Source: a virus. From it: a DNA stretch of 64,000 bases. Under the pieces are notes generated by a model. The model saw nothing but the letters and a program-made list of their open reading frames with translations, was not told the DNA's origin and made no database searches. The stretch covers positions 1-64,000 of the IMG/VR virus record IMGVR_UViG_3300009314_000008. One strand, 5' to 3'. A program made the position numbers and the translations under genes. Positions 1 through 54,795 of this stretch are shown one piece after another; position 1 is the first letter of the stretch, and every line of letters starts with the position of its first letter.

Positions 1-293
1 TTATAAGAATTTGCTTTTAGTTGGTTTTTTCTTACATTGCGATCAAGTTAAATATGCATTCAAAAGAATGCAAGTTTTTTCTGCTGCGATTAGCAGCTTA
101 GTTCAACAAAAATATCCACTCGTCACGTTGTTTTGCGTGGCATATTCGCCATCAATACAATTCTAATCATCTTTCCTTCTGTTGCATCATATCTTTTTCA
201 TCCTCAGCCAATTCTTGCCGCAGTGATTTGGCGACATTTTGATTACGCTCTTCATGGTCAACCAACGCACATGGGCATCCAACTCGATTGCAG

Positions 294-599
294 TCATTTC
301 TGTAGACACACATCTTTCCTCCTTTTATGCTTTTGATCCATACCTATACTATTAAGAGGTATAACTTTTACCGGATTTTGGAATTGTGCAAATGTTGCCC
401 CAAATCCCTTTCCCGAATTATAGAATACCACATTGCTGTCCACAATTTTGAAATGGGTGGAATCATACTCTTGGTGCAGAATATCTGATGCCTCATTATA
501 TTCACTTACTTCATCTGTTACCCACGATGGGACTAAACAATATATTTTATCCTTTTGAGTATTGGTGGTTACTATTTGCAGAGCTTTTTGGATATCCAT
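294..599 (-). CDS. hypothetical protein (~101 aa, start reassigned to MDIQKALQ)
   Basis: ORF track gives 294..647, but the upstream part overlaps the tRNA-like element; AGGAGG RBS precedes the ATG at 599. Confidence 0.65.
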   Translation of the reverse strand: MDIQKALQIVTTNTQKDKIYCLVPSWVTDEVSEYNEASDILHQEYDSTHFKIVDSNVVFYNSGKGFGATFAQFQNPVKVIPLNSIGMDQKHKRRKDVCLQK

Positions 600-621
600 T
601 ACTCCTCCTAATAGGTAAAAA

Positions 622-694
622 TTGGCAGGATGGATTCGAACCACCATCCAAGGCTGTCATCTTCCCTTGTGATCTACCATTGATCTACTGTCCA
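622..694 (-). tRNA. tRNA-like element or tRNA pseudogene with aberrant 11-nt anticodon loop
   Basis: Minus strand TGGACAG-TA-GATC AATGGTA GATC-A-CAAGG GAAGATGACAG CCTTG-GAT-GGTGG TTCGAAT CCATC-CTGCCA: intact D arm and T arm, one-base bulge in the acceptor stem, no assignable anticodon. Confidence 0.7.
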
Positions 695-713
695 TCATAT
701 AATTAAACTTATA

Positions 714-751
714 CTGTTTATTATATGACAGATTTTATTATTTTCCGTCAA
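714..751 (-). promoter_or_regulatory. putative phage promoter motif TGACG-N10-AAATCTGTYATATAATAAAYAG, copy 1
   Basis: 20/22 identity plus identically spaced TGACG with copy 2 at 9992-10028; contains TATAAT; lies just upstream of the tRNA-like element. Confidence 0.55.
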
Positions 752-796
752 AATATCTTGACAAAATTTATTTGTTTTATCTTCTGATATTGAGGT

Positions 797-3700
797 GTGT
801 TTATGAAGGATATCAGTCTGGATAACGGTTCGGGGAAAACCGAAGACATTAAAAAGTCTTTAGTAGCAGGGCTTAATAAAATTTTTCCCATAGAATCTAA
901 TAAGAGAAAATTATCTATTGAGAACATTTGGTTTGGCAGACCAAACTTTGACGGCAATTCATGGAAGGATATCAATGATGCTCACAAGTCTAAAAGCACA
1001 ATAGGATTACCCTACCACTATGACATGGTTATTACGGACAAAGAATCCGGGAAAACTATTTCCCGTAAGAAAGTTAAGGGCGGAACCCTCCCGACTAAAG
1101 TTCCCTTACTGATGGGATCTTTCATGGTTGATGGCAATGCTTACTCTATTCCCCTTCAGGACAGATTGAAGCCAGGTGCATATGCCAGATTATCTGAAAC
1201 GGGTGAAGCCGAAGTCTACAATAACATAAAGGGTAGCACTCCCCTTCGTACCACGATTAGTCCGGAAAGGGGAATTATTTCTCTTAAAATCAGACAGGGT
1301 AGCGTGCCCCTGTATCCGTTACTAAAATTAATGGGTATCAAAGATGAGAAAATCAAGTCCACCATAGGAAATGAACTCTTTGACAAAAATGCCACTGCTG
1401 ATTATGGAAAAAACATTATGAAGGTTCATAAAATAATGTTCTCCTTCAATGCTGATTCATTAGAAGATGCTGAACAAAACATCAAACATAAGTTCGCATC
1501 CATGTCAACCAGTCCCGAAGTCAATAAAAGGACGCTCGGAGATGACCACAAGAACATTGATGGTCACTATTTGCTAGATACGGCTAAAAAAGTGGTAAAC
1601 ATAACCAGGGGAATTGATTCTCCGGACAACAGGGACTCTCTTATTAATAAATCTACTATGGGTATTGACGACATCCTTAAAGATTCGCTTGAGAGATCCG
1701 GTAAGATGAGCACATTTAGCTACAAAGCTCGCTGGAAAATGAATCACACTGATGACGCATCCAAGATGGTCAATCCGAAAAAGATCGATGAGCACGTTAA
1801 ACAGATATTTACTTCATCCAAATTGTCAAGATACGCTGATCAAACCAATCCTGCATCTATGATATCAGAAAACAACCTTACTACAGTATTAGGAGAAGGT
1901 GGTATTGGCTCTAAAGATGTTGTTACACAGGCTGCCAAAAAACTGCAGAATTCTCATGCTGGATTTATTGACCCGGTCAAAACTCCCGAATCGTACGCTG
2001 CGGGGATCAGCCTCACTTTAGCCAAAGATACAAAAAAGATAGGTAACGAATTGGCTACTAAAGTCATTGATGTTAAAACGGGAGGCGTTTCCTGGCTGCC
2101 AGTATCTAAAACCCTTGACACACCAGTTGCATTCCCGGGAGAGTTTATTAACCGTGGTGGCAAATGGGTTGCTAAAGACAGTGAGGTTGATGTAATCTAT
2201 AATGATGATGAGAAATCTATTGACCCCAGCAAAGTAAGATATATGATTCACAGCCCATCTGGGATGTTTGACATCTCTACTAACATGATCCCCTTTATTC
2301 AATCTAACCAAGCTAACAGGCTCTTAACAGGGACCAAGATGTCCGCCCAGGCGGTTCCTCTCGTTGAACCAGAAAAGCCGCTAGTTGAAACAGTAGTTGA
2401 TGGGATTCCTATGCTGGATGCTATTGGGGACAAGTTCTCTACGAAGGCTAAACAATCCGGAACCGTTTCTAAAGTCACCAAAGATATTATTGAGGTTACT
2501 TCAGGTAATGGCACATCTCAACATTCTATTCCTAGCGATGTCCCTCTTAATGAGAAATCATTTATAGACGCTATTGTAAAGGTTAAAAAGGGTGATAAGG
2601 TTAAAAAAGGGCAACTTCTTGCAGATTCAACTTTTACCCGGGATGGAAAATATGTTAATGGAGTGAATTTAGTCACAGCATATACTCCATGGCAGGGGCT
2701 GAACCACGAGGATAGTGCAGTCATCACCGAAAGTGCGGCCAAAAAACTCAAATCACTCCATGTTCACAAGATAACACTACCCAAAAAACACAACTTATCT
2801 CTTAATTTAGAAAAATATAAAGCATACAATCCCTATGTCCTTGATAAAATCGAGTCCGGCAATTATGATAAAGACGGGGTTATTAAGCCGGGAACTACGG
2901 TTAAGACCCACGATCTATTAATTGCCGCCATGGAAGATAATGTCGTTACCGGAGCAGATAGCCTTATTGCCAAAATGAAAAAATCTTCTATCCAACCATT
3001 TAAGGATGCTTCCGTCTCCTGGAGAAAAAGTCCGGAGGGCAAAGTCATTGATGTAGTAAAAGATAAAGATGCTGTAAAGGTATATATCAAAACAACCGAA
3101 CCCTTTAAAGTGGCTGATAAAATTGTCGGCCGACATGGTAACAAGGTTACTGTATCATCTATTATCCCTGACAAATTAGCTCCCGTTACAGAATCTGGAG
3201 AAAAGGTTGAACTAATAATTGATCCTCTCTCCGTTCCTAGTCGTATCAATATAGGTCAACTCATTGAAACTGCTGCAGGCAAGGTCGCTGACAAGAAAAA
3301 ATCTCCATATTTAGTAAATAATTTTGACGGATCTGATCACCGCAAACAGATTTTAGACATCATGAAAGATATTGGAATCAAAGAAACTGAAGATATTTTT
3401 GATCCAGCCACAGGGGCCACAATCCCAAATATATTGGTGGGAAAACAGTACATAAATAAATTAAAACATCAGGTTGAGCACAAAATGTCCTCCCGTGGAG
3501 TTACCGGACCCTATACTTACAATAATCAGCCTATTGCTGGTAGCGGTCGTGGTGGAATGGCGTTTGATAACTTGACCACAAATGTATTATTATCTCATGG
3601 AGCAAAAGATATCCTTCGGGAAGGGTTCAATGTTAAAAACAACCCTAACACTGATTATTGGAGGGCAATCCAACACGGAGAAGTCCCTCCAGCTCCAACT

Positions 3701-4036
3701 ACATCCTATGAGTGGAAAAAATTTGAATCGCTATTGAAGGGAATGGGTATCAATACTAAGAAAAAAGGATCCTCCATTAAATTAGCACCCATGACGGATA
3801 AAGATGTTTTAGATATAAGTAAAGGTGAAATCGAATCTCCGATAAAAACATTTCGAGGCAAAGGCGCTTCCCTTACTCCAGATAAGCATGGATTATTCGG
3901 CGATAACGCAGGGGGGTTCATGGGACAACATTTTAATCATATCAAACTCAATAAACCTATTCCTAATCCTGCATTCAAGGAGGGCATTAAAGCAATCCTT
4001 CGTCTTACTGACAAGGAATTTGAGGAGTCACTTTAA
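797..4036 (+). CDS. rpoB: phage RNA polymerase beta subunit fused to the beta' N-terminal segment
   Basis: beta motifs IDPVKTPES, MIPFIQSNQANRLLTGTKMSAQAVPL, GLNHEDS, ADKIVGRHGNK, PLSVPSRINIGQLIE, KLKHQVEHKMSSR; C-terminal LAPMTDKDVLDISKGEI..GLFG..NHIKLNKPIPNP resembles the start of beta'. Confidence 0.92.
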   Translation: MFMKDISLDNGSGKTEDIKKSLVAGLNKIFPIESNKRKLSIENIWFGRPNFDGNSWKDINDAHKSKSTIGLPYHYDMVITDKESGKTISRKKVKGGTLPTKVPLLMGSFMVDGNAYSIPLQDRLKPGAYARLSETGEAEVYNNIKGSTPLRTTISPERGIISLKIRQGSVPLYPLLKLMGIKDEKIKSTIGNELFDKNATADYGKNIMKVHKIMFSFNADSLEDAEQNIKHKFASMSTSPEVNKRTLGDDHKNIDGHYLLDTAKKVVNITRGIDSPDNRDSLINKSTMGIDDILKDSLERSGKMSTFSYKARWKMNHTDDASKMVNPKKIDEHVKQIFTSSKLSRYADQTNPASMISENNLTTVLGEGGIGSKDVVTQAAKKLQNSHAGFIDPVKTPESYAAGISLTLAKDTKKIGNELATKVIDVKTGGVSWLPVSKTLDTPVAFPGEFINRGGKWVAKDSEVDVIYNDDEKSIDPSKVRYMIHSPSGMFDISTNMIPFIQSNQANRLLTGTKMSAQAVPLVEPEKPLVETVVDGIPMLDAIGDKFSTKAKQSGTVSKVTKDIIEVTSGNGTSQHSIPSDVPLNEKSFIDAIVKVKKGDKVKKGQLLADSTFTRDGKYVNGVNLVTAYTPWQGLNHEDSAVITESAAKKLKSLHVHKITLPKKHNLSLNLEKYKAYNPYVLDKIESGNYDKDGVIKPGTTVKTHDLLIAAMEDNVVTGADSLIAKMKKSSIQPFKDASVSWRKSPEGKVIDVVKDKDAVKVYIKTTEPFKVADKIVGRHGNKVTVSSIIPDKLAPVTESGEKVELIIDPLSVPSRINIGQLIETAAGKVADKKKSPYLVNNFDGSDHRKQILDIMKDIGIKETEDIFDPATGATIPNILVGKQYINKLKHQVEHKMSSRGVTGPYTYNNQPIAGSGRGGMAFDNLTTNVLLSHGAKDILREGFNVKNNPNTDYWRAIQHGEVPPAPTTSYEWKKFESLLKGMGINTKKKGSSIKLAPMTDKDVLDISKGEIESPIKTFRGKGASLTPDKHGLFGDNAGGFMGQHFNHIKLNKPIPNPAFKEGIKAILRLTDKEFEESL

Positions 4037-4798
4037 ATGGAATGTCCTTCGATCATTAAGGTCGCACTATCCAAAAGACTTAAAAAAGATTTAATTATTC
4101 CCAAGGGGACGATCTTTCGCGACATTAGACCAGGAACAACTGTCAAATACATTAGTCCCGGCCATTATGATTCAATTTTTGGACTAACAAAAGATACCTA
4201 CGGTTCTATAATGTATTCGTTTGATAACAATATTGACACAAAACAGAAACGTTTATTAAATGAATATTTCGAGAATATTAACAGTATGTCTAAAACAGCC
4301 AGACCAAGTAAAATAAAGGCACTATATAACATCATGAGAACCAGACAATATCTTCCATCTCTTGACAAAATAGATTTTGTTAAATTCCCAGACAAAAATA
4401 TTTTTGTCAGAGAAGATATTAAACCGATTACGCAGTTCCCCAAAAGAAATACTAAATCGAAATTGTTGGAGATGCTTGAAGGCTCTGCTCATGAGGGATT
4501 TCATCAATTAGGTGTTCATAAGGATGTTATCTCAATCAAAGAACTTCAAAGACTTGGGTTTAAGAGATCTATTGGACTTCCTGTCCCGGGCGAGTTCGTT
4601 TTATCTCCCTCATGGAGACTGGGTAAACTGCATGTTCGTAAATTAAATGACTTATTTCTTATCCATAAAGATAATATTGCCCCGCAAAACTTGATAGATA
4701 CTATAAAACATAATGCTATTGATGTTCCTGCTGGCATCTATGCTTATTGGCTGAAAGGGATAAAAGAAATAGCCACCAATAGTAAGGAGATCAAATGA
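4037..4798 (+). CDS. hypothetical cargo protein with CP-leader (MECPSIIKVA), inserted within the beta' coding region
   Basis: No RNAP motifs; abuts the upstream stop and overlaps the downstream start (ATGA); leader shared with genes at 47.6-62.7 kb. Confidence 0.75.
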   Translation: MECPSIIKVALSKRLKKDLIIPKGTIFRDIRPGTTVKYISPGHYDSIFGLTKDTYGSIMYSFDNNIDTKQKRLLNEYFENINSMSKTARPSKIKALYNIMRTRQYLPSLDKIDFVKFPDKNIFVREDIKPITQFPKRNTKSKLLEMLEGSAHEGFHQLGVHKDVISIKELQRLGFKRSIGLPVPGEFVLSPSWRLGKLHVRKLNDLFLIHKDNIAPQNLIDTIKHNAIDVPAGIYAYWLKGIKEIATNSKEIK

Positions 4799-5787
4799 GT
4801 GAAATACTCAACAGACTATCCGACATCGATATTGACGATAGGTTACCTCGCATTAAAAATAGAATAGAGCATGAGACTAGCCCCAGGATAATTGATAAGT
4901 TAGTTAAGGAGTTTAAGGTTTTAAATAATCTTAAGAAAGAGGGATTAACTCCATATGAGGCATTTACTAGAGAGATTGTGCCAGTTATCCCAGCTCAGTT
5001 CAGATCACCCATCGAACTTCCCAATGGCAACATTTTTAGCCCAGAGACTAATATACTGCTTCGAGATATTGCTCTCACAAATAATCTTGTTGATAAATCA
5101 AAAGAAATGGGGAAAGAACAGGAAGATAAAGCAACCAAAGAACTTTACAAAACCGTTGAGAAACTAATGGGATTCAAATCCCCCGAAGAGGGAAAGAATT
5201 TATTCGACACTATATCCGGTGGTAAGGCCCCCCCCAAGAGAGGATTCTTCCAAAGGCATATGGTTCGCAAACGTCAAAACATGTCAGGAGGGTCAGTGAT
5301 ATCCCCTGGTCCTCATTTAGATATTGATGAAGTCGAAATACCATATGATATTGGGCTAAATATTTTTGAACCATTTATTAAAAAAGAACTCACGGAACGT
5401 GGATATGCCAACGATGACATCGAAAAGGCAATATCAAAACGAACTTCATTAGCAAAAGACGCTCTTTTATCAGCCAGTAGGAACAGGCCTGTATTGATTA
5501 ACAGAGCCCCGTCTATTTGGCAAGGATCAGTAACTGCACATAAGCCAATATTTACAAATAAGAAGAACATTACTATCCCTAGCTTGCTTACGGCTTATCA
5601 GGGTGCGGATTTTGACGGTGATAGTTGCATATCTTTCATTCGTTTACGTTATAAGCAGAATGCTGATTTTTATATTGACATTAAGTCTGTTTTTAAATAC
5701 ATTGTCTCCATAATTAAAATATGGAGGAAGAAAATAAATGCGAATAGCAATAACAGACAACAGGCGAAACATAATAGTAAACGATGA
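4795..5787 (+). CDS. rpoC: RNA polymerase beta' middle fragment (catalytic ADFDGD) plus N-intein
   Basis: VPVIPAQFRSP, GFFQRHMVRKRQNMSGGSVISPGP, VLINRAPSIW, YQGADFDGD at 5596-5622, then non-RNAP SCISFIRLRY. Confidence 0.92.
   Translation: MSEILNRLSDIDIDDRLPRIKNRIEHETSPRIIDKLVKEFKVLNNLKKEGLTPYEAFTREIVPVIPAQFRSPIELPNGNIFSPETNILLRDIALTNNLVDKSKEMGKEQEDKATKELYKTVEKLMGFKSPEEGKNLFDTISGGKAPPKRGFFQRHMVRKRQNMSGGSVISPGPHLDIDEVEIPYDIGLNIFEPFIKKELTERGYANDDIEKAISKRTSLAKDALLSASRNRPVLINRAPSIWQGSVTAHKPIFTNKKNITIPSLLTAYQGADFDGDSCISFIRLRYKQNADFYIDIKSVFKYIVSIIKIWRKKINANSNNRQQAKHNSKR
5623..5787 (+). mobile_element. split intein N-part (short, Ser1-Cys2)
   Basis: RNAP similarity stops exactly after DFDGD; S-C-I-S-F-I-R-L-R-Y is block-A-like; the remaining tail overlies a promoter. 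Confidence 0.75.
5675..5727 (+). promoter_or_regulatory. sigma70-type promoter and RBS for the endonuclease gene
   Basis: TTGACA (5675-5680), N17, TACATT (5698-5703); GGAGG at 5723-5727; ATG at 5738. Confidence 0.7.
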
Positions 5788-6814
5788 ATTTTCGAAACAG
5801 TCAATTATGGTTAAAGGTGGCAAAAAGGACACTTATTTGATGATCAAGCCCGCAAGTGATAATTCCGTTAAAACTATTGATATTGCAGACAATAATATCG
5901 TTTGCAATAGAGAATCAGGTCAATTTTTTGGCATGTTTATTGGAGACGGATGGGCAGATGCTAGCAACGGAAATCGTAAGGGGTATCATATTAGCATTGC
6001 TTCCATTCATGATGAGATTATAATCGCGTTCAGAACATATGCTAACAAATTTTTAAGGCAACACCTCGCATATACACCAGGGATACATCATAAAAATACC
6101 AAACACGATTATTGGGATAACCATACATCTATTCATGGCAAATTTACTATAGGAGTTCCTGCTAACACATGTTCAGCGATGCTTGCTACTTTTGGACATG
6201 GAGCAAAAAATAAAACATTTCCAGATAATTTATTAAATACCCCCAATGATTTCAGATGGGGGCTACTGTCTGGCTTGATGGATACAGATGGCACATTCAC
6301 ATATCGCCAACAAACAAAGAATGGTAAGCTATGCTACAATAAGTTGTCAACATATTCAACCGTCAGTATAAATCTCGCTAATAAAGTACAACTACTTTGC
6401 TTTACCCTCGGTATAAATGCTTCGATAACTACTACGATACACAAACATGATGATCGTCCTAATGTTACAGAATATTTAGTAGTATTAAGCGTTAAACATT
6501 TAACAGAATTGAGAGACAACCTATCTTTGATACTTCCATATAAAAAAGATATCCTCCATAAATTCACGATAGAAAATCAAGCATACCGCAAAGATATTGT
6601 TCCTTATGATAATGAAATTCATAAGTTAATAAAGTCTTTGATCCCCTACAAAGACAGATCAACAGTATTATCCCTTGCTCGCAATCGTGGCTATATCACC
6701 CGACAAACAATGGATAGATACTACTATGGTCCAATCAAAGAGTTGTACGACACCAAATTTAACTACAATCATCAATATGAAATCGTAAAGGAGATAATTG
6801 AGGTACCAATATGA
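5738..6814 (+). CDS. free-standing LAGLIDADG (DOD-type) homing endonuclease
   Basis: Two LAGLIDADG motifs, GQFFGMFIGDGW and WGLLSGLMDTDG; also AKNKTFP and STVSINLANKVQLLCFTLGINAS, typical of intein endonucleases. Confidence 0.9.
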   Translation: MRIAITDNRRNIIVNDEFSKQSIMVKGGKKDTYLMIKPASDNSVKTIDIADNNIVCNRESGQFFGMFIGDGWADASNGNRKGYHISIASIHDEIIIAFRTYANKFLRQHLAYTPGIHHKNTKHDYWDNHTSIHGKFTIGVPANTCSAMLATFGHGAKNKTFPDNLLNTPNDFRWGLLSGLMDTDGTFTYRQQTKNGKLCYNKLSTYSTVSINLANKVQLLCFTLGINASITTTIHKHDDRPNVTEYLVVLSVKHLTELRDNLSLILPYKKDILHKFTIENQAYRKDIVPYDNEIHKLIKSLIPYKDRSTVLSLARNRGYITRQTMDRYYYGPIKELYDTKFNYNHQYEIVKEIIEVPI

Positions 6815-7323
6815 ATAATTTTTCCCTTTTTAATCGTTTTCTTCATAAGCTTTCATACAAGCTTTTTGGTAAAGGCAAAGTCTTTATCGGAGACATTGAC
6901 CACTACCCATATCCTATTGAAGTAAAAGGCAATTGCTTTGGCGGACAAAACATTAAATATGTAGCACTCCCTGGCCAAATGTGCACATCCATCACAAAAA
7001 ATGGCAAAATTGTTGAAGACGAGATCACATACTTTTCTATCCACAGAAATATCCCCCTCTATAAAGTTATTTATTCGGATGGTTCAGAGATACTAACATC
7101 TCCAGTCAACACAATACTTATCATGTCTGATGATAAATGGGAAAGGGCTAATCTTATAGATATGAGTATTGTGGGCAAAGTGTCTCCTGGGTTCTCGGAT
7201 GGTAGCATTATATACAAAAAAGTAGTTGAAGTTATAAATACCCACAAAAAAGTAGACATGTATGATGTTTCACTTAAGAATGAAACCACTTTTCTTACCG
7301 ATTCCGACATATTTGTCTTTGAT
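6811..7323 (+). mobile_element. split intein C-part (171 aa, ends Phe-Asp; +1 residue Thr)
   Basis: Joining DFDGD to TVSVHVP restores the bacterial DFDGDQMAVHVP register exactly. Confidence 0.8.
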
Positions 7324-9162
7324 ACTGTATCTGTCCATGTCCCAATTTCAGACAAGGCTGTCAAAAATGCTAAAAACATGATGCCTTCCATGTCTCTTAT
7401 AGAAGAAGAAACAGGCAAGATAAAAGCTTTCCCTGATCATTCCGCAGTGGCTGGACTTCATATACTGTCTAAAACAGAAGATGGGTTAAACAGGATTAAT
7501 TCAGTTCTTCCGGATGGACATAAGGCTACGGGTATACTGGACAAAAATAAAATCAAGAATATAATTAGCAATGTCGCCAAAGATAGTGAGCCAGTAGCCG
7601 CCAAAGTTGCTAATAAGCTAAGAGAGTTAGGCGATAATCATGCATATAAATCAGGGTTTTCCCTATCTTTATCAGATATTGAACCACTACAGGATATCAA
7701 ACAAGAGGCCATTGATAAGGCTATCAAAAAATTGAAGTATGTTGACCCTGGTGATTCAGTTAAGATAGAACAAATTTACCAGAGTATTATTGCCGATACA
7801 GACAAGAAGGTATTAGAGAGAATGAAAAACAGCAAGGGCAATATCCCTGTCATGTTGAATTCTCGAGCTCGAGGCAGCATGTCCCAATTCCGTGATATCA
7901 TAGTGTCACCTATCGCCATTGCCAGCAAAGAGATATCTAAAAAACCTATTAAACATGCTTATTCAGAAGGACTTTCTCCTGCAGAATATTGGAAGTCCGC
8001 ACATGGTGCTCGCAGAGGAGTTATTGGTCGCGCCCAGGAGACCGCGCTGCCCGGCGCCCTCGGTAAAGAATTACTATCCACTACAAATACCCTCATTACC
8101 CGGGGAGATAAACCTGATAGCCTCCGATCAATAGAGTTGCCTCTTGATAACACAGACGATGTTTTAGATCGATATACCGCCCGAGACATCAGAGATGATG
8201 ATAATAGGACAGTAGTCAAAAAAGATACTCTAATTAATCCGGATATTATACAAAAGCTGCTAAAAAAAGATATCAAGAATGTTAGAGTTTATACTCCTCT
8301 GGGTAGTAGTAACATTGACGGGACTATACCATCAGTTGCGTATGGGATTAATAAATATAAAGAGATCCCGGAAGATGGTTACCCAGTAGGTGCAATTAGT
8401 GCATTCGGATTAGTTGAGCCCCTGTATACTGGATCTATGCAGAAATTTCATACTGGGTCTGCTATAGAAGACCAAGCTGCAGGATATCCGAGACTCAAAC
8501 AATTACTCGAGCTTACTTCTTCAACAACTGAACGCAAAAAGCTTCCCAGTGAAGCAACACTGTCTACCGTCTCCGGCGAAGTTGAATCAATAGAGAATGA
8601 TGATCTTGGTGGACATAATGTCACCATAGGTGGTAAGAAACACTACGTCCTGCCTGCCAACAAACTGAAAATTAAGGTCGGGGATTCTGTCGGTAGAGGA
8701 GACTCTCTCTCAACGGGTCCTATCCAACCAAAGGACCTCGCTAAACTGAAATCTATAGAAAGTGCACAAAAGTACATGGTTGATGAAATTCGAAAAGTTA
8801 TTCCTGAATTGAGAAGAAGGAACGCTGAGGTCATAGTAGAGGGATTAACCAGATATGGCAAAATCATTGATCCGGGAGACACCGAATATTTACCAGGAGA
8901 CATTGATCTCGTCAATAACATTAATGCCAAAAATACCGAATTTGATGATAATCCAGCATCATTTGAATATCTTTTCCGCGGAGTAAATACACTCCCCCAG
9001 GAAACACAATCATGGCTATCTAAACTTAACTTCCGTAACCTCAAACGCGTATTTCAGAAGGATCTGATTACTGGTGCAGAAGCAGACATACATGGTCCCG
9101 AACCAATACCTGGACTAGCCTATGGGGTTGAATTCGGCAAGGGTAAGAAAGGTCACTATTAG
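6811..9162 (+). CDS. rpoC: C-intein (aa 1-171) plus RNA polymerase beta' C-terminal fragment
   Basis: RBS GAGGT at 6800-6804; HINT blocks YSDGSEILTSPVN and MYDVSLKNETTFLTDSDIFVFD, then TVSVHVPIS, SRARGS, YSEGLSPAEYWKSAHGARRG, EPLYTGSMQKFHTG, GYPRLKQLLE. Confidence 0.92.
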   Translation: MNNFSLFNRFLHKLSYKLFGKGKVFIGDIDHYPYPIEVKGNCFGGQNIKYVALPGQMCTSITKNGKIVEDEITYFSIHRNIPLYKVIYSDGSEILTSPVNTILIMSDDKWERANLIDMSIVGKVSPGFSDGSIIYKKVVEVINTHKKVDMYDVSLKNETTFLTDSDIFVFDTVSVHVPISDKAVKNAKNMMPSMSLIEEETGKIKAFPDHSAVAGLHILSKTEDGLNRINSVLPDGHKATGILDKNKIKNIISNVAKDSEPVAAKVANKLRELGDNHAYKSGFSLSLSDIEPLQDIKQEAIDKAIKKLKYVDPGDSVKIEQIYQSIIADTDKKVLERMKNSKGNIPVMLNSRARGSMSQFRDIIVSPIAIASKEISKKPIKHAYSEGLSPAEYWKSAHGARRGVIGRAQETALPGALGKELLSTTNTLITRGDKPDSLRSIELPLDNTDDVLDRYTARDIRDDDNRTVVKKDTLINPDIIQKLLKKDIKNVRVYTPLGSSNIDGTIPSVAYGINKYKEIPEDGYPVGAISAFGLVEPLYTGSMQKFHTGSAIEDQAAGYPRLKQLLELTSSTTERKKLPSEATLSTVSGEVESIENDDLGGHNVTIGGKKHYVLPANKLKIKVGDSVGRGDSLSTGPIQPKDLAKLKSIESAQKYMVDEIRKVIPELRRRNAEVIVEGLTRYGKIIDPGDTEYLPGDIDLVNNINAKNTEFDDNPASFEYLFRGVNTLPQETQSWLSKLNFRNLKRVFQKDLITGAEADIHGPEPIPGLAYGVEFGKGKKGHY

Positions 9163-9171
9163 CGAATAGTT

Positions 9172-9200
9172 AAAAAAAAGAGGGGTTGACCCCCTCTTTT
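9172..9200. terminator. bidirectional intrinsic terminator
   Basis: AAAAGAGGGG-ttgac-CCCCTCTTTT between convergent genes. Confidence 0.8.
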
Positions 9201-9217
9201 ATCATTCTGCCAGACGA

Positions 9218-9346
9218 TTATTTGTCGTCTTTTTTGGCATCTACTTCCGGTTCCTTGTCAGCTTTTGCTTTTCTTGGAAACAATAATGCCCCCAAAAAGC
9301 CACCGACAATCAATCCGCCACCGCCAGCGATTAATATAGTTTTCAT
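9218..9346 (-). CDS. small membrane protein (42 aa, MKTILIAGGGGLIVGGFLGALLF...), not in ORF track
   Basis: GGAGG RBS; ATGA overlap with the upstream gene. Confidence 0.65.
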   Translation of the reverse strand: MKTILIAGGGGLIVGGFLGALLFPRKAKADKEPEVDAKKDDK

Positions 9347-9582
9347 TTTTCCTCCTTTGTTTGGAATTCCCTTATCATTGAAACATAGTTTGCGATATCA
9401 TAGTAAGACATGTCATTACGATCCTTTCCGGTTTTACCTTCGTAAAGAACGAATGCCTCTTCGAGTTCTGCAGAATCTGGATTCAACACAACAACATCCA
9501 TGAACCCCGTTTCTACAGTTGCGATCAAAGCCATGGCCACCAATATAGCTATGACAATGAAGATATAACCCTTCTTACTCAT
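9343..9582 (-). CDS. small protein with N-terminal transmembrane helix
   Basis: GGAGG RBS; hydrophobic N-terminus. Confidence 0.7.
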   Translation of the reverse strand: MSKKGYIFIVIAILVAMALIATVETGFMDVVVLNPDSAELEEAFVLYEGKTGKDRNDMSYYDIANYVSMIREFQTKEEK

Positions 9583-9598
9583 TCTTCCTCCTTTTAAA

Positions 9599-9913
9599 TT
9601 ATTGTGTCACAACATTGTCGAGAGATGGTAATTCAATTATTTTATACCGATAACATTTTTTAAGATATTCCTGCCCTTTCTTTGTATGAGTCAAGTAATA
9701 ATACTCACGCAGAACATTCCATACGAACCCTGCTACAAACAGTATCAACGCACTCAACCACCCCATCACTATCCATATGGTTACGACAGGGATGGCAAAC
9801 CAGGGACTTCTAATTAGAATGTCCAAAAAGATGGGTACTTCCAGTTTTTTCATAGCGATCCACATACCTCTTAAACTTTGTACTAAACCAATCCATAAGA
9901 ATGTGACAAACAT
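9599..9913 (-). CDS. small membrane protein
   Basis: GGAGG RBS; 2-3 hydrophobic segments. Confidence 0.7.
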   Translation of the reverse strand: MFVTFLWIGLVQSLRGMWIAMKKLEVPIFLDILIRSPWFAIPVVTIWIVMGWLSALILFVAGFVWNVLREYYYLTHTKKGQEYLKKCYRYKIIELPSLDNVVTQ

Positions 9914-9936
9914 TTTTCCTCCTGTTTTTAGAGTCT

Positions 9937-9978
9937 AAAAAAACCGCCCACTGCTATCGCTTTTTTTGTGGGCGGTTT
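9937..9978 (-). terminator. intrinsic terminator ending the minus-strand structural operon
   Basis: 11-bp inverted repeat AAACCGCCCAC/GTGGGCGGTTT running into a T7 tract on the minus strand. Confidence 0.7.
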
Positions 9979-9991
9979 GCTATACATGACT

Positions 9992-10028
9992 CTATTTATT
10001 ATATAACAGATTTATGGCATTTTCGTCA
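9992..10028 (-). promoter_or_regulatory. putative phage promoter motif, copy 2
   Basis: TGACG-N10-AAATCTGTTATATAATAAATAG, matching 714-751. Confidence 0.55.
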
Positions 10029-52026: not shown

Positions 52027-54795
52027 TTACTTATCTAAATCCATATTTGCTATTATTTTTTTATATAATGTGGGATTTATGTATCGAAGTTGCTTTAGCA
52101 TTTCTACCCTGTCGGTTTCATTATAACTTTCCTGAATCTGTAGAGCCATCTCCTTGGCAACATCGTCTTCCCCCGTTTTAATCAAGGTGTTGTCCTTTTC
52201 AATTTTCATGAATTGATCTAGATTGTCGGATATCATCTGCTTAAACTCATCGGGGAACTTTTGAACTTCCTTTACAAACTTGCCGAATTCTGGTGTTCCT
52301 TCGAGTTTAATCATCCTGGATGCATAGGCCGCGGCTTGTTGCTTAATGAACATTCGGCTTTCCAGTTCGGTTTCTACATCTTTGGCGATATCTGGACGGT
52401 GAGCCTCAATCTCCTCAACTATATCAGATATTTCATTGTCGTCTGCATTGGCTAATCTATCTGCATAGCCCATTGTGGCCATAGCATCCGCAGTTTCTTT
52501 AACTTTAGCGAACCTCTCCGAAGATTCCTGCATTAATTGCTGTTTAAAATATTCTCTCTCGTCCTGATTTAATCTATTATAGGTTGTAGCAGACAAATTT
52601 ATACTCTGATCTTCTGCTCTTTCTTCGTCCATTCTTTTAATACGTTCTTTCTGCAAGTTTGGATCCATTGTGACCGTTTTCTCTATTTGTTCTTCATCCT
52701 TTTTCTTCTTATATATATTTTCCAGTTGCTTATTGCGTTCTTCTTCGCTTAATTGGGACAATTCCTGTTTAGTCTGGGGATCAAGATTGTCGTTAATGGC
52801 CGACATTTCCTGTTCTATAGCAATTTCTTGAAGACATTTCTTTCTGTCATCGTACTTCATGCCGATCAATTCCAGTTGTTTAGTTTTTGGCAATTTTTTA
52901 TAAATCTCCATCAATTGACGGTATTCTTCGGCCATCTGTCTCTTATAATTAACCTCATCTCCCTTGAGTCCCATGGCTTCCATCTGATTCAATTCCAATT
53001 TCATTGATCGTTTTGCATCTCTATACTGCTGATCAGATTGTATTTTGAGACTTTCCTTCATATGTTCTAAAGAACCATCCATCTCATTAATCCGCCGTTT
53101 ATTCTGAACATCCAATTGATAATCCAACAACTTTTTCTTGGATGCAATATCCATTTTCATCAATTTCTTATGTTTATCAATAGCGGCCTCCATTTTATCG
53201 GATTCAATGGCGGCTATAGATAACTGATCTTTCAGGGCTTCTCGACGTTCAGTTTCTTTTATTTTCTTCTGTCCAGATAACAATACTTCTTGGAATTCAA
53301 CTTCACCCTGGGCTTCGAGGCGTTTCTGCATTTTTTTGAAATAGATTCTATCCTGTTTAGTGGCTTCTATTTTTGATCTTTGTGCTCGGAGATCAACACC
53401 AAACCGACTATAATATAATTCCGGAGATATATCTCCGTTCACCATACCCTTTTCGAGAAAAGTTGACTCCGCAAGGGCCTCGACCAACCTGGGCATTTCC
53501 AAAGTCAATTCGACCTTATCTTTTACATTCTGCGATGAGTTTATTTTCTCGGCTATAAAATCTAATAATTCCTGGACTAACATTCCGAATTGTTTAAATG
53601 TATTTTCGAGAATAATCGCTGATACATTTTGTCGTGACCATGTTACTCCACCGAATATAAACTCAATAGGTACACCTATTGTGGCCAATATGTCCGACAT
53701 GTTCTCGCGCAATTCTCTTCCGAGCACGAGAAGTTTGCCGGCTCCCCAAAAGTCTTTACTGCCCATTTCAATAGGCATCACCATTACATGTTTATTATCT
53801 TTTTTCCATTTTTTATATTGTGAGAGAACGCTCTGTCGCCAAGTCAACGAATTAATAGTTTGAGTCCTTGGTAGATGACCTCCAGATTCACCTCTCCAAA
53901 TAGGATAAAGCATCCGGAACGGAACCATCAATTCTTCGGCAACATTAGCGTTTGCTTGGACATACTTCATTCTTGTATAGAGATCTTGGAATGCCATTAC
54001 CATGGGTGGAATTGGCATCCCTTGAATATTCATTGTCGGAGCCTCAAAGATAAATAGTTTGCTGGGATTGATGACTATCCTGCGATTTTTCAATGCCGCT
54101 CTTATATATATCTGAGGCGTTGTACAAAGAATATAATGATCACCCCTGCGTATCAGATTACGCATTTCTTTATCAATATATAATTTATATTGTTTTGTGT
54201 CAGTTATTTTATTATAAACTGCTTCAATATTGTTAGGTGACCATACTGCTATAGACATTCTTTTTAAATTTGAACTATCTTTTCTATCTCTCATCTTAAA
54301 GGATGCATTTTTCCCATAGGCAGAACACTTTTTGTTGCGGCATTTATATTGAATCGATCCTTCTCCCGAACTATCCCATTTATATTCTGGGTCTCCTGTA
54401 TGTGTGAGATCTTTTAACAAATACGTATCTCCACAACTTTCACACACAATAACCTTATCAATAGCATACATCGGAAAAACAGCACTTATCCCATATATAT
54501 CATAATCACGACATGTCTTCACTATTTTTTCTCTTAATTTAATCACCCTGATCATCTTTTTGGCTCTATCCTCAAGTTCTGGATTATTACTTCTGATTTT
54601 AATATCCTGGATGGCAAATCTTGCCTTCTTGAGTATAGCCGTCCCAATCGCTGTATGGGTAAAGAAAAACTCCGCATAGCGATAATAGGTCTTCGCTCTA
54701 ACGGGGACAACTATTCTGTCCATGTTCAGGTTGAACACCAAATTCTTGATTCTGCTTGTATTATAGCTGCCTTCAGTAACACTATCTAATGACAT
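52027..54795 (-). CDS. portal protein with Zn-ribbon insert and long helical C-terminal extension
   Basis: Synteny terminase-X-portal-protease; VPFRMLYP, IGVPIEFIFGGVTWS..ILEN; CESC..CRNKKC. Confidence 0.7.
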   Translation of the reverse strand: MSLDSVTEGSYNTSRIKNLVFNLNMDRIVVPVRAKTYYRYAEFFFTHTAIGTAILKKARFAIQDIKIRSNNPELEDRAKKMIRVIKLREKIVKTCRDYDIYGISAVFPMYAIDKVIVCESCGDTYLLKDLTHTGDPEYKWDSSGEGSIQYKCRNKKCSAYGKNASFKMRDRKDSSNLKRMSIAVWSPNNIEAVYNKITDTKQYKLYIDKEMRNLIRRGDHYILCTTPQIYIRAALKNRRIVINPSKLFIFEAPTMNIQGMPIPPMVMAFQDLYTRMKYVQANANVAEELMVPFRMLYPIWRGESGGHLPRTQTINSLTWRQSVLSQYKKWKKDNKHVMVMPIEMGSKDFWGAGKLLVLGRELRENMSDILATIGVPIEFIFGGVTWSRQNVSAIILENTFKQFGMLVQELLDFIAEKINSSQNVKDKVELTLEMPRLVEALAESTFLEKGMVNGDISPELYYSRFGVDLRAQRSKIEATKQDRIYFKKMQKRLEAQGEVEFQEVLLSGQKKIKETERREALKDQLSIAAIESDKMEAAIDKHKKLMKMDIASKKKLLDYQLDVQNKRRINEMDGSLEHMKESLKIQSDQQYRDAKRSMKLELNQMEAMGLKGDEVNYKRQMAEEYRQLMEIYKKLPKTKQLELIGMKYDDRKKCLQEIAIEQEMSAINDNLDPQTKQELSQLSEEERNKQLENIYKKKKDEEQIEKTVTMDPNLQKERIKRMDEERAEDQSINLSATTYNRLNQDEREYFKQQLMQESSERFAKVKETADAMATMGYADRLANADDNEISDIVEEIEAHRPDIAKDVETELESRMFIKQQAAAYASRMIKLEGTPEFGKFVKEVQKFPDEFKQMISDNLDQFMKIEKDNTLIKTGEDDVAKEMALQIQESYNETDRVEMLKQLRYINPTLYKKIIANMDLDK

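Follow-up and report, generated by a model that had tools for sequence, protein, structure and literature searches.

The window analysed here is a stretch of 64,000 nucleotides of viral DNA (positions 1 to 64,000 of the IMG/VR record IMGVR_UViG_3300009314_000008), and its plus strand carries, between 797 and 9162, a row of five back-to-back open reading frames (ORF1–ORF5), all intact, that encodes the only RNA polymerase (RNAP) core of contig C1, to which the window belongs. ORF1 (797/803–4036; 1079 aa) specifies the β subunit fused to about the first 85 aa of β′, and the remainder of β′ is divided between ORF3 (4795–5787; 330 aa, Pfam Rpb1_1 and Rpb1_2) and ORF5 (6811–9162; 783 aa, Pfam Rpb1_3 and Rpb1_5). 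An initial annotation of this DNA had also placed the rest of β′ in two further genes, which is correct, but it counted three genes where the row has five; the two that it missed are ORF2 (4037–4798; 253 aa), which belongs to no known family and starts with the leader MECPSIIKVA, and ORF4 (5738–6814; 358 aa), a LAGLIDADG homing endonuclease gene.

The gene borders of the row are of the usual phage type. A Shine–Dalgarno-like sequence lies 5′ of every start, and stop and start abut or overlap at all junctions: the TAA of ORF1 is followed directly by the ATG of ORF2, ATGA overlaps join ORF2 to ORF3 and ORF4 to ORF5, and ORF4 starts 50 nt 5′ of the end of ORF3, in another frame and behind a GGAGG ribosome-binding site of its own. 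ORF3 and ORF5 share one reading frame, from which that of ORF4 differs. A consensus scan, which works by pattern match, placed terminator-like hairpins just 3′ of ORF5 (9176–9230) and found no plus-strand terminator-like site within 797–9162, which makes the five genes look like a single transcription unit.

The β–β′ junction and its relatives

ORF1 starts at GTG 797 or, more probably, at ATG 803, which has a GAGG at 791–794, 8 nt upstream, and it stops at the TAA ending at 4036. Its product matches Pfam Rpb2_3 and Rpb2_6 and, in a search of the PDB, bacterial β chains (best E 4e-73). Over its full length it aligns with residues 24–1097 of gp206 of Salmonella phage Arash (31% identity, E 4e-136), a continuous protein of 1525 aa in which Pfam places Rpb1 domain 1 at residues 1022–1260. 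A profile of the junction, built from six sequences and searched against the PDB, returned 38 matches, 36 of which are β′ chains (best E 0.0017), and its positions 21–65 align to β′ residues ~10–55. The last 99 aa of ORF1 alone gave a weak Rpb1_1 match (E 0.003, profile positions 47–96). Judged by these alignments, β′ begins at about ORF1 residue 995, and its N-terminal segment occupies 3779–4033 on the plus strand (about residues 995–1079). The gp206 alignment and the junction profile both bear out what the initial annotation had read from the sequence, namely that β continues without a stop into the N terminus of β′ (about 80 aa by its estimate, ~85 aa by ours); the C terminus of ORF1 does align there. 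As judged by eye, the zinc-finger stretch of bacterial β′ has presumably been deleted (GLFGDNAGGFMGQHFNH) at window positions 3900–3960 (ORF1 residues ~1035–1055), and we take it to be deleted likewise in all relatives of the junction alignment.

The junction of ORF1 is homologous to that of polymerases in which β and β′ form one chain. Two viral contigs in IMG/VR encode such chains, L010 (2070 aa) and L009 (2637 aa, including a LAGLIDADG domain), at 27–29% identity to the window, and three proteins from metagenomes, P0133 (2576 aa), P0137 and P0132, likewise consist of a single β–β′ chain. In phage Arash and in Vibrio phage D69, β is fused to the N-terminal part of β′, through the catalytic motif. 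L010, L009, P0133 and the Arash and D69 fusions are homologous to the window's genes throughout and have the same tight β–β′ junction, but they are continuous across the break between ORF1 and ORF3, where the window is not. Arash is cut instead ~85 aa past the catalytic motif, and its C-terminal piece, gp216, which aligns to window 7534–9159, lies 5 kb away. The window itself is not of the single-chain kind, as only the first ~85 aa of β′ remain on β.

Because related viral contigs encode one β–β′ chain, a single-chain ancestor of bacterial type is well supported by these sequence comparisons, and the presence of the β′ N terminus on β is most simply explained by a fusion that was then broken downstream. 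A search for related loci among viral contigs with ORF5 alone as query gave no match, and literature searches on fused phage rpoB/rpoC and on Salmonella phage Arash returned nothing relevant and nothing, respectively. Among the Vibrio phages, the β–β′ gene is continuous in D69 (4584 nt) and in two pieces in D181 (L002, 6962–12476) and D148, where small ORFs and an annotated homing endonuclease separate the pieces.

The break at the catalytic motif

The second of the two breaks in β′ (break 2) lies directly 3′ of the catalytic DFDGD motif. Residues 1–276 of ORF3 (4795–5622, plus strand) are mid-β′ sequence, comprising the end of Rpb1 domain 1 and domain 2; they align with residues 1156–1444 of Arash gp206 and end in GADFDGD. 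The β′ sequence resumes in ORF5 with TVSVHVP and continues through the C-terminal 612 aa of the subunit (7324–9162, plus strand). The initial annotation overlooked that the last 54 aa of ORF3 and the first 171 aa of ORF5 are not β′ at all. We assign these stretches to the N-piece and the C-piece of a putative intein, for which the flanking β′ segments are the exteins. The 54-aa tail of ORF3 (5623–5787, plus strand) begins Ser-Cys-Ile-Ser-Phe; about its first 38 residues are conserved with the metagenome locus L008, and its 16 last codons overlap ORF4. The 171-aa head of ORF5 (6811–7323, plus strand) reads SPVN in block B, DMYD in block F and FVFD in block G, after which comes Thr at position +1, and is conserved in eight split and two unsplit relatives.

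Between the two pieces stands ORF4 (5738–6814, plus strand), a free-standing, double-motif LAGLIDADG gene (Pfam LAGLIDADG_3, E 1e-12) whose product shares 30% identity (E 6e-28) with the endonuclease domain of an intein at the same site in P0133. ORF4 separates block A from the remainder of the Hint fold, whereas the endonuclease of P0133 occupies the canonical position. The second break of the initial annotation is real, but it consists of a split intein with an endonuclease gene, and the β′ halves are probably rejoined. A literature search pairing an intein with NADFDGD found nothing. A sigma-70-like match (TTGACA, 17 nt, TACATT) is present at 5675–5703 (plus strand), in the coding region of the N-piece and 35 nt 5′ of ORF4; this pattern match may mark a control element that travels with the endonuclease gene.

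We took advantage of structure prediction to analyse the two pieces. The ESM Atlas model of ORF5 residues 14–175 matched ten intein-bearing clusters (TM by query 0.60–0.73), which include intein-bearing archaeal and giant-virus RNA polymerases. An exhaustive search with a profile of the insert reached the Pfam-recognised inteins of P0132, P0133 and P0137, and a single-sequence search of the PDB with the insert yielded spurious repeat-protein matches only. Pairing was modelled with ORF5 residues 1–190 and ORF3 residues 262–330, alongside three controls and from alignments of our own making. The pair obtained a score of 0.80, whereas the highest-scoring of the three controls had 0.00; of 80 solved complexes 58 reach that mark, as do 2 of 110 mismatched pairs, a rough yardstick here, as the alignments were author-made. 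At least 77% of the contacts agree between runs, and the pLDDT of the partner is at least 61. In the model, ORF3 residues 275–287 (strands) and 298–306 (helix) touch the C-piece, the former packing against ORF5 residues 20–26, 54–59, 94–101 (block B), 148–153 (block F) and 161–169, with block G also in contact. This arrangement suggests that the Hint fold may be split after a first helix. The result may reflect memory of solved split inteins, and we regard the model as supporting the pairing of the two pieces, not as proof of it. Viewed together, the ESM Atlas matches, the insert profile and the pairing model indicate that the broken ends carry two predicted Hint halves, with sequence-only scores that lie below curated cutoffs.

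The residues that would carry out splicing were also inspected. Residue 1 of the intein is Ser277 of ORF3 and the +1 residue is Thr172 of ORF5, both as in class 1 inteins. All ten matched sequences (10/10) have Asp as the last intein residue and Thr after it, residue 1 is Ser in five sequences and Cys in one, and the Asp of block F is kept. Every insert-bearing sequence has Thr at +1, versus Ala, Ala and Thr in the empty alleles. Inteins that end in Asp, Gln or Glu are known to splice by cyclising that residue (PMC4031507).

States of the DFDGD site among relatives

The same site is found in several states in related polymerases. It is empty in P0009 (DYDGD-A-VSVHVP), P0011 and P0014, which read continuously as DxDGD-[A/T]-xxxHVP; in alignments the exteins of ORF3 and ORF5 are continuous in P0009 and P0011, both of which show DxDGD-A-xSVHVP there. 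An unsplit mini-intein of 203 aa occupies the site in L006 (one ORF of 1091 aa) and in P0129, in P0133 it holds a full intein that contains a LAGLIDADG domain, and in L008 the site is split around a 470-aa RRXRR-HNH gene. The split form is represented by the window and by seven more proteins that begin at the Met of ORF5. In L006 (2150–2230) and P0129 (residues ~325–355) the N terminus of the split C-piece, including its start Met, is present internally, and from their sequences these unsplit inserts resemble either forms re-fused in frame once the endonuclease gene had been lost, or the stage immediately preceding its insertion.

The distribution of these states was analysed on a maximum-likelihood tree of the C-extein only, from which the second intein of P0014 had been removed and P0137 and P0132 were left out (junction pattern unmatched). 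The window (split) and P0009 (empty) are sisters with support 100/99; L006 (unsplit) has P0014 (empty) as its sister, with support 99/97, and is nested among split forms; and P0129 (unsplit) is paired with P0128 (split), with support 93/80. Such patchiness on the extein tree is as expected of a mobile homing element. P0014 (1268 aa) has a second, canonical LAGLIDADG intein (SFH/CFHGD ... THN/TGG, with slashes at the splice junctions) at another conserved β′ site, whereas its DFDGD site holds no insert. In this lineage β′ has been invaded at more than one site.

The first break and ORF2

The first break (break 1) lies ~85 aa into β′ and holds ORF2. The interval from the end of ORF1 to the start of ORF3 is bridged by ~27 aa in P0133 or 58 aa in Arash, so that the break lies in a short variable loop of β′. 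In at least five relatives (P0009, P0011, P0014, L006 and P0129) β′ starts at the same residue as ORF3, which indicates that break 1 predates the phage of the window. The initial annotation had proposed a fused β–β′ broken at two points: the ancestor and the two breaks stand, given the single-chain relatives, but this phage is not the only one to have break 1.

ORF2 has no match in Arash gp206 and none in Pfam or PHROGs, and its ESM Atlas model (pLDDT 0.40) shows no family and no confident fold; we found no sign that it supplies a segment of β′. A homolog occupies the same position in L008 (32% identity, E 2e-20). The 10-aa leader with which ORF2 begins, MECPSIIKVA, follows the consensus M-x-C/R-P-x-I/V-I/V/L-K-x-A/S, and the strict leader is found at the start of eight ORFs on C1 (4037, 47983, 48615, 49139, 58310, 60444, 61552 and 62659), compared with three in the remaining 2.62 Mb of the assembly. 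The copy in ORF2 is the only one on the plus strand of C1 and the only one that falls outside 47–63 kb. In L008, a leader-bearing InPase (1947–2516; PF18823, E 2e-51) lies between the ORF2 homolog and β′ and ends in a second leader-like motif, LKCPEIIKVK; leader-bearing genes thus seem to have been inserted repeatedly at break 1.

Genomic context

Contig C1 (134,618 bp, 36.6% GC) comes from an assembly of 2.76 Mb in 189 contigs with a mean GC content of 34.6%. Profile searches identified one Rpb2_6 locus and one Rpb1_5 locus on C1 as its polymerase set. Genes for alpha (PF01000) and omega (PF01192) were searched for on the whole of C1 and neither was found, which agrees with the initial annotation; the sole alpha gene of the assembly is on the host contig C66, and the host rpoB/rpoC genes are on C62. 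A 922-aa ORF at 52027–54795 (minus strand) is homologous to the portal protein of phage Arash (24% identity, E 3e-38), and nine of ten large neighbouring ORFs have no match in PHROGs. Given a portal and a polymerase common to C1 and Arash, and nine of ten neighbours without a PHROG, we consider C1 to be a phage contig of a poorly known lineage. A tRNA gene is situated just upstream of the polymerase row (622–694, minus strand; Rfam 33.7 bits, above the gathering score).

Discussion

We think it probable that this phage encodes a fused β–β′ polymerase with two breaks, of which the second is a trans-splicing split intein with a homing endonuclease cassette. From the anatomy of the row, the homologies, the states of the DFDGD site and their patchy distribution we infer splicing, homing and subunit assembly as follows. 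A single-chain, bacterial-type β–β′ fusion is the well-supported ancestor and has been broken at two points. At break 1, ORF1 would join the rest of β′ without a covalent link. At break 2, a mobile fracture cassette would have settled, made up of a short N-piece, a free-standing LAGLIDADG gene and a long C-piece. The prediction is that the two intein pieces, once translated, combine into one Hint domain; trans-splicing by way of the Ser at position 1, the +1 Thr and cyclisation of the Asp at the terminus would then ligate ORF3 residues 1–276 to ORF5 residues 172–783. The product would be an 888-aa β′ body that reads DFDGD-TVSVHVP and has the length of the uninterrupted alleles, and empty alleles would acquire the cassette through the action of the endonuclease. 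As break 2 would be closed at the protein level, a single break would be left in the mature enzyme. Only tentatively, and with some doubt, do we extend this proposal to an autonomous homing cassette, in which N-piece, endonuclease and C-piece together turn an intact essential polymerase gene into two in one step, and to an intein of a new natural family that is cysteine-independent and atypically split (Ser 1, Thr +1, terminal Asp, no block B His).

Several observations weigh against splicing at break 2 and must be set beside those that favour it. Block B reads Ser-Pro-Val-Asn, where class 1 inteins have Thr-x-x-His with a normally catalytic His, and the penultimate His is replaced by Phe, the insert ending in Phe-Asp and not in His-Asn. 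The C-piece matches Pfam Intein_splicing weakly (E 3e-4, 21 bits versus a cutoff of 35.8), a profile search of the PDB with the insert found no intein, and AlphaFold2 modelling of the unsplit L006 insert from a three-row alignment was unusable (mean pLDDT 43). The N-piece, at 54 aa (~38 conserved), exceeds the 15–37 aa of natural atypically split inteins. At break 1, ORF2 could be an accessory subunit of the RNAP instead of a passenger gene. Some inteins are able to splice without the penultimate His (PMC4031507). Block B is SPxN in most relatives, SPVR in P0127 and SSDH only in the full intein of P0133; since unsplit forms carry SPxN inside one essential chain, at the catalytic loop, this block appears compatible with splicing. 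The chemistry is thus unusual and splicing is something we infer, but trans-splicing probably rejoins the β′ halves.

The replacement of the block B His by Asn (Arg in P0127) and the absence of the penultimate His would equally suit domesticated Hint halves that do not splice, and that either hold the β′ halves together unligated or only cleave, leaving a non-covalently assembled polymerase with a Hint domain beside the active site. The pairing model speaks for association and not for chemistry, and a split form kept across 43–57% identity looks like a stable arrangement. We nevertheless judge this alternative unlikely: no insert-bearing sequence lacks the position-1 nucleophile, Thr +1 or the terminal Asp, whereas Ala is the usual +1 residue of empty alleles; L006 and P0129 have the same SPxN in a single essential chain, where a permanent 200-aa insert would be hard to square with activity; and the element is gained and lost on the extein tree like a mobile intein. 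That endonuclease invasion killed β′, so that the polymerase is decaying and the phage uses the host enzyme, is very improbable. An essential catalytic loop is indeed interrupted and no alpha or omega gene is present, but the five ORFs are intact and apparently translationally coupled, and the split form occurs in at least eight divergent sequences in which exteins and intein blocks are conserved. We attach next to no credence to repair at the RNA level by a group I intron with a LAGLIDADG gene, or to an artefact in which assembly frameshifts broke an in-frame intein. LAGLIDADG genes do often reside in group I introns, and ORF3 and ORF5 share a frame that ORF4 does not; however, no Rfam intron matched in 1–10000 at E values up to 1, the flanks of the endonuclease gene encode conserved Hint pieces, and the Met start of ORF5-type proteins is conserved in eight sequences. 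Moreover, an unrelated HNH gene interrupts L008 at this very site, and the window's endonuclease is placed after block A and ahead of the remainder of the Hint fold, instead of at the canonical position that it has in P0133.

Read as a split intein with its endonuclease gene, break 2 can be compared with the fractured genes of Dassa et al. (2009, PMC2677866), which comprise 26 loci for enzymes of DNA synthesis and repair and contain GIY-YIG or Vsr-like endonucleases. There, as here, an enzyme gene is found in two adjacent ORFs of the same orientation, with intein halves on the broken ends and a free-standing endonuclease between them, and related loci lack the endonuclease, which fits the gene-breaking model (PMC2677866). 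Like such loci, the window shows a broken conserved gene, a free-standing endonuclease between the parts and, on the broken ends, two predicted Hint halves. It differs in that the host gene is RNA polymerase β′, cut at the catalytic DFDGD ('RNA polymerase' is absent from the main text of that paper, PMC2677866), in that the endonucleases are LAGLIDADG or, in L008, RRXRR-HNH, and in that the split point is near the intein N terminus. The natural atypically split inteins AceL-TerL, GOS-TerL, VidaL and PolB16 have N-pieces of 15–37 aa and are split after strand 2 or helix 1 (PMC13014065); they share with the present intein a short N-piece, a long C-piece and a phage or metagenome source. PolB16 is the only known natural cysteine-less representative, and it is slow and inefficient (PMC13014065). 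With Ser 1 and Thr +1, the intein described here would in principle be cysteine-independent, like PolB16. It departs from the atypically split inteins in having a terminal Asp instead of Asn and a block B Asn instead of His.

Phage polymerases of the phiKZ/AR9 type have β in two or three pieces and β′ in two, and usually occur as two paralogous sets, virion and non-virion (PMC7824862). Like the polymerase of the window, they are two-barrel RNAPs without alpha or omega in which β′ is in pieces. The window, in contrast, encodes one set, its β is whole (the 1079-aa ORF), its sequence is nearer to bacterial enzymes and the matches of the row to jumbo-phage RNAP PHROGs are weak; the enzyme is not of the kind found in phiKZ and AR9, which the initial annotation had cited as jumbo phages with split RNAPs. 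The mReC phages (Weinheimer and Aylward 2020, PMC7481178) are, like C1, metagenomic tailed-phage contigs with bacterial-like β and β′, and the paper that describes them makes no mention of a fusion within mReC, a split or an intein (PMC7481178). Searches of the genome for the mReC markers, the Gp23-type capsid (PF07068) and the terminase (PF03237), gave no match; the PF07068 search had no match in any control genome either, and C1 may be an incomplete phage genome.

Genes of the kind described here are now annotated in phage records as 'hypothetical' or 'beta subunit', with the intein pieces unmarked. A natural split intein that combines a short N-piece with independence from cysteine would, if the proposal holds, be of use in protein engineering. 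One site in this family shows all stages of the gene-breaking model, empty, occupied by a full intein, occupied by a mini-intein, and split around two unrelated endonuclease families, and these stages are scattered over the tree of the host gene. For the evolution of RNA polymerase, our analysis indicates that in one small family the β–β′ core exists as one, two or three chains, and that this core could be cut at the catalytic loop itself, given an intein to repair the cut.

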